Of a DNA stretch of 64,000 nucleotides, positions 33,491 through 33,718 are shown in pieces. A model generated the notes under the pieces. It was not told where the DNA came from. It made no database searches and saw only the letters and a list, made by a program, of their open reading frames with translations. Each line of letters opens with the position of its first letter. The first letter of the stretch is position 1. This DNA is from Escherichia coli (GTDB lineage: Bacteria > Pseudomonadota > Gammaproteobacteria > Enterobacterales > Enterobacteriaceae). Where the stretch lies: assembly GCF_050920415.1 (NCBI RefSeq), contig NZ_CP169309.1. The stretch is one strand, 5' to 3'. The position numbers and the translations under genes are program-made.

Positions 33491-33718
33491 ATGATTAACG
33501 AAGAGCAACTTGAAAAAGAAATTTCAGCGCTCAAAAAAGAATTAATGTGGCACAAAGTCGCTATCTCTGCATTAATTCGTCAGGTGGTTTCACCTGAAGA
33601 TAAAGTAAATTTTATGAAGCACTTCTCATGTTCATCAAATGAATTTTTTACTGACGGTCCTCATCCAGAGGCTGGTTTTTGGATCCGTCAACTATTTTCG
33701 CAAGATAAGCGTAAATAG
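33491..33718 (+). CDS. Small coiled-coil protein (76 aa), plus strand inside a minus-strand region
   Basis: GGAGG RBS 6 nt upstream of the ATG (MINEEQLEKEISALKKELMWHK...); its 3' end overlaps the convergent 80-aa gene. Confidence 0.5.
   Translation: MINEEQLEKEISALKKELMWHKVAISALIRQVVSPEDKVNFMKHFSCSSNEFFTDGPHPEAGFWIRQLFSQDKRK

Follow-up and report, generated by a model that had tools for sequence, protein, structure and literature searches.

The head-on arrangement of a small accessory gene against the early-left operon is already known from the prophages of Escherichia coli K-12. In the Rac prophage, sieB is directed against the early-left operon and overlaps the convergent 3' end of ydaF; the repressor gene racR lies a few genes away. 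The sieB gene is a superinfection-exclusion gene expressed in the lysogen, which is the type of function expected of a moron, and classical phage morons, accessory genes that stand between conserved phage genes and have a promoter and a terminator of their own, have mostly been characterized one at a time, each with its particular regulatory sequences. In the e14 prophage, the plus-strand gene ymfI and the minus-strand gene ymfJ converge and share 63 nt. Convergent or divergent units whose transcripts overlap and whose expression is mutually exclusive are known as excludons. Both pairs, ymfI/ymfJ and sieB/ydaF, are included in the 165 convergent excludons recognized from RNA-seq coverage (PMC12288877), and the RNA and protein of ymfJ rise late in the SOS response (PMC11002266).

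The locus considered here is situated in a 64,000-nt stretch of the E. coli contig NZ_CP169309.1 (hereinafter, the window; positions are counted from its first letter) and contains a plus-strand ORF of 75 aa and a minus-strand ORF of 80 aa, which converge and overlap at their 3' ends (Table 1). Since the e14 and Rac prophages of K-12 share this layout, the pair represents another case of an arrangement that was known before. The likeness to ymfI/ymfJ lies in a small plus-strand gene converging on the first leftward gene beside a cI-like repressor gene (ymfK in e14); however, at the locus studied an HTH gene precedes the overlapped minus-strand gene, and e14 ymfI does not have the conserved leader described below. 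Moreover, the 75-aa protein had no detectable sequence similarity to YmfI (no NCBIfam match at E ≤ 0.1 in the comparison with the YmfI family NF051477), and the 80-aa protein was not visibly similar to YmfJ when the two were compared by eye. The locus resembles sieB/ydaF in its orientation against the early-left operon, in the proximity of a repressor gene, and in the overlap with a convergent 3' end, but sieB and ydaF share no more than 4 nt, the product of sieB, a membrane protein of 162 aa, is not similar to that of the 75-aa ORF, and no copy of the conserved leader was detected before sieB. As in phage morons, the plus gene has a promoter-like site of its own and a candidate hairpin terminator, and it is present or absent and replaceable at a fixed position, as seen in phage PhiR49_2 and from the other cargos found behind the same leader; unlike in phage morons, a single structured leader of high conservation serves many unrelated cargos, and the cassette intrudes tail-to-tail into a gene of the operon. 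The features shared with excludons are the convergent coding sequences, predicted transcripts that would have to overlap, and predicted opposite states (lysogeny versus induction), whereas the difference is that the coding regions overlap here, and not the UTRs only.

The segment 32900–34500 of the window was 100% identical (for this queried stretch only) to a prophage of E. coli MFDS1022581 that adjoins yecE/cmoA, and the early-left part of the prophage had 98.6% identity with the Stx2e phage phiP27. According to the annotation of the 100% identical genome, all genes from the integrase gene to the gene of the cI-like S24 repressor (34494–35189) are located on the minus strand, with the exception of the plus ORF, which agrees with the description of a lone plus-strand ORF amid minus-strand genes in an earlier note on this DNA. 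The repressor ORF (231 aa) is intact in the window; in the otherwise identical NZ_CP169399, an indel was observed at ~34993, and PGAP annotates the gene as two, one for an S24 peptidase and one for an HTH protein. Between the stop codon of the minus ORF and the homolog of phiP27 L08, the next leftward gene, the leftward transcript would cross an untranslated spacer that is antisense to the promoter of the plus gene, to the leader, and to the 5' part of the plus ORF. It should be noted that the L08 homolog, which has 121 aa in phiP27 and in one of the two haplotypes considered below (haplotype B), carries a nonsense substitution at codon 5 in the window (GAA to TAA, complement of 33296–33298), where PGAP annotates a 68-aa internal restart instead. 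The L08 homolog has a domain in common with the N-terminal half of the 153-aa HTH protein, and since both match phrog_4587 and phrog_5451, they look like paralogs flanking the cassette. Base composition was tried as a marker of the cassette and rejected, since the whole early-left region is AT-rich and composition does not single the cassette out. The rightward region of this prophage contains an isrK-like RNA followed by a C4 antisense RNA in two tandem copies, detected above the Rfam gathering threshold (36828–37016 and 37481–37669, plus strand), an arrangement of the P1/P7-type antirepressor immunity; further Rfam matches above this threshold in the window were MicL, STnc490, STnc100, and C0465 (21991–22298, 43891–44005, 44205–44393, and 7936–8013).

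Table 1. Features of the convergent locus and their positions in the window
Feature	Position	Strand	Details
Homolog of phiP27 L08 (121 aa), next leftward gene	32945–33310	−	337 nt past the stop of the minus ORF
Putative sigma-70-like promoter of the plus gene	33370–33398	+	TTGAGA, 17-nt spacer, GATAAT; 10/12 consensus matches
Leader (predicted 5' UTR), 86 nt, three hairpins	33405–33490	+	Conservation and folding
Hairpin HP1	33405–33426	+	
Hairpin HP2	33432–33456	+	
Hairpin HP3	33457–33462 paired with 33478–33483	+	Covers the first bases of GGAGG 33481–33485
Plus gene, 75 aa, cargo of the leader	33491–33718	+	ATG 33491; TAG 33716–33718
Convergent coding overlap, 71 nt	33648–33718	both	Plus codons 53–75 and stop; minus codons 58–80 and stop
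Minus gene, 80 aa, second of the leftward operon	33648–33890	−	ATG 33890; TAA, complement of 33648–33650
Perfect 12-bp hairpin, candidate one-directional terminator of the plus gene	33733–33760	+	Inside the minus ORF
HTH (XRE/DicA-like) gene, 153 aa, first of the leftward operon	33887–34348	−	Pfam HTH_3, 1.5e-11; phrog_4836, 1e-76
Operator-like palindromes flanking the leftward promoter	34379–34395 and 34427–34442		
Putative leftward promoter	TTGACA 34430–34425; TAATAT 34407–34402	−	17-nt spacer; 10/12 consensus matches; directly past the repressor terminator

The overlap of the two 3' ends has exactly the extent given in the earlier note, and the GGAGG sequence that it reported before the plus ORF is present, with a 5-nt spacer to the ATG. 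When random sequences of matching composition were generated by a first-order Markov model, 21% of them contained a plus ORF of 75 aa or more, 8% a minus ORF of 80 aa or more, and 0.8% a convergent overlapping pair of these sizes; thus, length by itself is weak evidence for either ORF, although the pair is unlikely to arise by chance. The copies of the locus fell into two haplotypes, A and B, which were ~8% apart within 33491–33920 and less than 2% apart outside, so that the divergence is confined to ~33491–33920, and the selection test consisted of one deep split between two haplotypes with ~14 substitutions per region. Of the 14 substitutions between haplotypes A and B in the stretch occupied by the plus ORF only, 11 were at codon position 3, and the plus frame of 33491–33646 had dN/dS = 0.24 (P = 0.009, six-frame control). 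The minus frame of 33720–33890 had dN/dS = 0.20 (P = 0.005), whereas the values of the other five frames ranged from 0.63 to 1.43. Over both non-overlapping stretches, the other frames had dN/dS of 0.63–2.9 or zero synonymous changes with one exception in the plus-only stretch, namely, the antisense frame that shares its third positions with the plus frame (dN/dS = 0.20) and contains a stop codon. Within the overlap, where only seven substitutions were available, dN/dS was ~0.26–0.35 for the plus frame versus 0.73 for the minus frame. The plus-strand AT skew changed its sign between the two ORFs, which matches two coding strands. Consequently, the comparison of both frames across homologs, which had been proposed as a check, revealed an excess of synonymous changes in the own frame of each ORF, and the assumption that either ORF is spurious is not favored, since purifying selection was found in the own frame of each in its non-overlapping part, and since each has an independent mark of translation, namely, a conserved leader, ribosome-binding site, and ATG for the plus ORF and an ATGA overlap with a Shine–Dalgarno sequence for the minus ORF.

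The minus ORF starts within an ATGA, the TGA of which ends the upstream HTH gene (153 aa), and its ATG is preceded by the SD-like sequence GGUGGGGA, an SD-like sequence being present in both haplotypes; the position of the stop codon is likewise conserved, with TAA or TGA in the two haplotypes. Copies of the cassette occur in 53 complete E. coli genomes. The plus ORF was intact in 26 of the 28 full-length copies and the minus ORF in 27 of them. Homologs with one frame interrupted, which the earlier note regarded as evidence against the overlap, do exist (the plus frame of phiP27 and the minus frame of one metagenome contig) but are rare. One relative had an in-frame 12-nt deletion in the plus ORF (L006). 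PGAP annotates the plus ORF (WP_032082696.1/WP_000606214.1). The product of the plus ORF matched the unnamed family phrog_20080 and that of the minus ORF the unnamed family phrog_23054; neither had a match in Pfam, NCBIfam, PADLOC, or PDB, and the word-indexed protein search returned for each only relatives with at least 69% identity. Thus, by sequence, the 75-aa protein matches no named family. Both small proteins are hydrophilic (GRAVY −0.54 and −0.40), and the 75-aa protein is predicted to be soluble and helical. The minus-strand protein is acidic (pI 4.9), with three helices predicted, and its tail is probably disordered according to the model, in which the last ten residues have pLDDT < 50. 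The AlphaFold2 single-sequence models of the two proteins had pLDDT of 58 (minus) and 66 and were too uncertain for fold searches.

Three other readings of the ORFs were rejected. The GTG at 33419, from which a 99-aa ORF would begin in accordance with the annotation of phiP27 L09, was discarded as a start because haplotype B lacks one nucleotide between the GTG and the ATG, so that the two are out of frame there, and because this stretch shows RNA covariation and not coding. A 51-aa hydrophobic ORF (33718–33873, plus strand), antisense to the minus ORF and with a GTG overlapping the TAG of the plus ORF, had dN/dS = 0.93, i.e., no coding constraint, and is therefore probably an artefact of the antisense frame. 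A type I toxin–antitoxin system was discarded on account of the hydrophilic character of both proteins, of the same dN/dS value of the 51-aa ORF, and of the lack of a PADLOC match.

The strongest support for the plus gene comes from the leader, which lies outside the region first reported. Among 5,426 complete E. coli genomes, 963 (~18%) carried the leader with 80% or more of its length covered, each in one to four copies; it was also detected in at least 120 IMG/VR contigs, and further copies were located in two loci (L004, 2466–2551; L014, ~2003–2091). Behind it, at least 10 unrelated ORFs of 57–109 aa were identified, all of them beginning from the same ATG after AUGGAGGAUAA. In O157:H7 prophages, a leader with ~90% identity precedes a different ORF, of 61 aa, and both are located between a 129-aa gene at the position of ydfC and dicF; hence DicF adjoins the O157 copy of the leader, and neither DicF nor another known sRNA was found by Rfam at the locus studied here. 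Two cargo families of the leader matched the NCBIfam YmfI model (8e-32 and 7e-13), below its curated cut-off of 140 bits. A remnant of the element was observed on the opposite strand of the K-12 Qin prophage, between ydfC and dicF (L204, ~4060–4170; ~1,649,060–1,649,170), and consists only of the commonest promoter (TTTTCA...TAAACT) and the first hairpin of the leader, without a cargo ORF; any transcript of this remnant would reach the 3' end of ydfC in antisense orientation.

Folding of the leader was more stable than that of shuffled sequences on the plus strand (z = −2.6) but not on the minus strand (z = −0.8). In HP2, four pairs were changed on both sides, a number reached in none of 500 shuffles, and every one-sided change in the alignment allowed a G-U pair, on the plus strand only; the near invariance of HP1 and HP3 makes them uninformative either way. 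According to the consensus fold, HP3 pairs UCCAUU with AAUGGA of the Shine–Dalgarno region. A REP/BIME-like reading of HP1 was rejected by eye, the loop being variable and the CCGGA/UCCGG arms invariant. Comparison with Rfam 15 yielded nothing at the gathering threshold near the locus, and at E ≤ 5 only chance-level matches of the snoRNA type were obtained within 32800–34500, none of them on the leader. A full-text literature search with the sequence string of the leader found no paper, and the leader element is unmentioned in the Pas sRNA preprint. The DNA upstream differs between the contexts of the leader, yet a −10-like hexamer stands 6–7 nt before the conserved CCGG in all eight contexts read by eye; given this fixed distance in differing surroundings, the leader is most simply interpreted as a 5' UTR from the first transcribed base, and at the locus studied, where this hexamer is the GATAAT of the promoter match, the promoter sequence would place the start of the plus transcript at ~33404–33406. 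Thus, the 75-aa ORF is very probably a real gene.

The only terminator-like hairpin after the stop codon of the plus ORF is situated 15–45 nt further, inside the minus ORF, and begins 15 nt past this stop (−19.6 kcal/mol, z = −5.3). The sequence after it on the plus strand is UCUUAAUAU (haplotype B has UCUUUAUAU), whereas on the minus strand a U-run is absent. Its U-tract is weak and failed the strict T-run rule of the terminator scan in the window, for which reason it is treated here as a candidate terminator. In the cargo families of loci L059 and L072, a clear hairpin with a T-run was found, likewise inside the convergent ORF. As to the leftward operon, the CTTGAT/ATCAAG half-sites of the palindromes flanking its promoter recur in the intergenic region between the repressor gene and cro (35213–35291), and the palindromes at these two sites are candidate operators oL and oR; the common half-sites suggest that the repressor controls the leftward operon. 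In phage PhiR49_2, the segment 33398–33917 is replaced by 158 nt of unrelated DNA, and since this segment includes the leader, the two small ORFs, and the end of the HTH gene, these elements behave as one cassette.

Behind the same leader, the overlap between cargo and convergent gene varied between 0 and 122 nt, with gaps in a few families, which argues against selection on the coding overlap as such. The opinion that convergent overlaps are rare was overstated for this position, where most cargos behind the leader abut or overlap a convergent gene. The convergent partners of the leader cargos (the MEFKDLP... and YmfJ-like families; IMG/VR loci L036, L063, L040, L059, and L072, and e14, L135 5777–6085) had common N-termini but C-termini of 51 to 216 aa, and the dependence of the length of the C-terminus on the adjacent cargo suggests that cassette exchange reshapes the tails of the convergent partners.

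The explanation that fits these data best, and that can be held as a whole with moderate confidence, is that both ORFs are real genes of two convergent transcription units in a phiP27-like lambdoid prophage. In the early-left operon, the 80-aa gene would stand second, in translational coupling with the HTH gene, and this operon would probably be off in the lysogen owing to the cI-like repressor. The 75-aa gene would be a moron-type accessory gene with its own sigma-70-like promoter, a structured leader in which HP3 may partly cover the Shine–Dalgarno sequence, and a hairpin terminator within the 80-aa gene. The 71-nt overlap is best explained by tight tail-to-tail packing of the moron cassette against the early-left operon, with the last ~23 codons of the minus gene being apparently weakly constrained. 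Since the two predicted transcripts must overlap, mutually exclusive, excludon-like expression is expected: the plus gene would be on in the lysogen, and after induction leftward transcription through it would silence it, either by transcriptional interference or by cleavage of double-stranded RNA. The anatomy of the locus, together with the analogy with ymfI–ymfJ and sieB–ydaF of K-12, makes a mutual antisense effect plausible here, and such an effect or transcriptional interference would be a likely consequence of the packing.

Two alternatives deny the reality of one of the ORFs. If only the plus ORF is a gene, the 80-codon minus ORF would be a chance frame, and the segment 33719–33890 would comprise the 3' UTR of the plus gene, its terminator, and an untranslated spacer of the leftward operon. 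Such a reading is consistent with the RefSeq annotation, since PGAP retained the plus ORF alone and omitted the minus ORF in all five RefSeq E. coli genomes inspected, and with the exhaustive HMMER search of the minus ORF, which recovered no distant homologs outside the lineage, only the ORF itself; the absence of Pfam and PDB matches, the pLDDT of 58, the 8% frequency of such ORFs in random sequences, and a 31-nt deletion breaking the minus frame in one low-coverage metagenome contig (L008) point in the same direction. However, the synonymous excess was specific to the minus frame, the ATGA overlap is accompanied by an SD-like sequence in both haplotypes, the stop codon was kept in place and the ORF intact in all copies but one, Prodigal calls on ENA metagenome contigs include both ORFs, and the AT skew switches its sign between them, so that this alternative is unlikely, and the minus gene is probably real. 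The opposite case, in which only the minus ORF is a gene and the plus ORF is untranslated, with the leader and the downstream stretch forming a non-coding antisense RNA against the leftward operon, is very improbable. It would account for phiP27, in which one extra A in an A-run (equivalent to 33533 of the window) truncates the plus ORF to 35 aa and results in the differently annotated ORF L09, for the absence of Pfam, NCBIfam, and PDB matches of the plus ORF, for the partial occlusion of the Shine–Dalgarno sequence by HP3, and for the Qin remnant, which keeps a promoter and the first hairpin without cargo. Against it stand the third-position bias of the substitutions and the low dN/dS in the plus-only stretch, the in-frame deletion in one relative, the GGAGG and ATG at a constant distance before at least 10 unrelated intact ORFs, and the preservation of the plus ORF in 26 of 28 copies, while the change in phiP27 concerns a homopolymer run of a single record from 2002 and could be a real mutation or a sequencing error. 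That both ORFs are genes at once is thus quite probable.

A further alternative accepts both genes and denies the overlap any regulatory role, supposing that insertion of the cassette, or recombination, happened to extend the minus frame into the plus gene, with neutral effect, and that the two units are expressed independently. This alternative has an appreciable probability, though it is not the one preferred: the overlap length varies widely behind the same leader, including families with gaps; the minus frame is poorly constrained in the overlap (dN/dS = 0.73), its encoded tail having pLDDT below 50; 23 more codons would stay open by chance in approximately one case in five at this composition (an estimate); and one contig (L007) lacks ~109 nt spanning the overlap. 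On the other hand, interference is the general rule between convergent transcripts that have more than 100 nt in common, the K-12 analogs were flagged as excludons from RNA-seq coverage, and the layout with terminators inside the convergent ORF recurs across cargo families. The reading of two convergent genes with excludon-like expression is retained as the preferred one.

Of all parts of the locus, the leader with its wide distribution is of greatest interest. It may tentatively be regarded as an undescribed cis-regulatory RNA and a portable expression module of lambdoid prophages that would start at the first base of the transcript, with HP3 masking the Shine–Dalgarno sequence. Its very high conservation would let recombination swap at least 10 small-gene families, YmfI homologs included, into the slot facing the early-left operon, where translation would be gated by a common signal and transcription shut off by leftward read-through on induction. 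According to a stronger version, the 75-aa and 80-aa proteins, which always travel together, may function as a pair, with the antisense overlap determining their ratio; alternatively, the leader may be a recombination linker.

Owing to its overlap with a convergent gene, an 80-aa gene that is probably real is omitted from RefSeq, and annotation rules assuming that one of two such ORFs must be wrong would mislabel this slot in the prophages carrying the cassette and probably in others alike. The locus is a further instance of a recurring prophage design in which an accessory gene is set head-on against the early-left operon, and this design would give a simple built-in switch between lysogen-specific and induction-specific expression. 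Convergent overlap as such was already known from the prophages of K-12; less usual is a leader common to at least 10 unrelated small prophage genes. Present in ~18% of complete E. coli genomes and absent from Rfam, this leader offers a handle for uncharacterized small proteins of prophages and for their common control.
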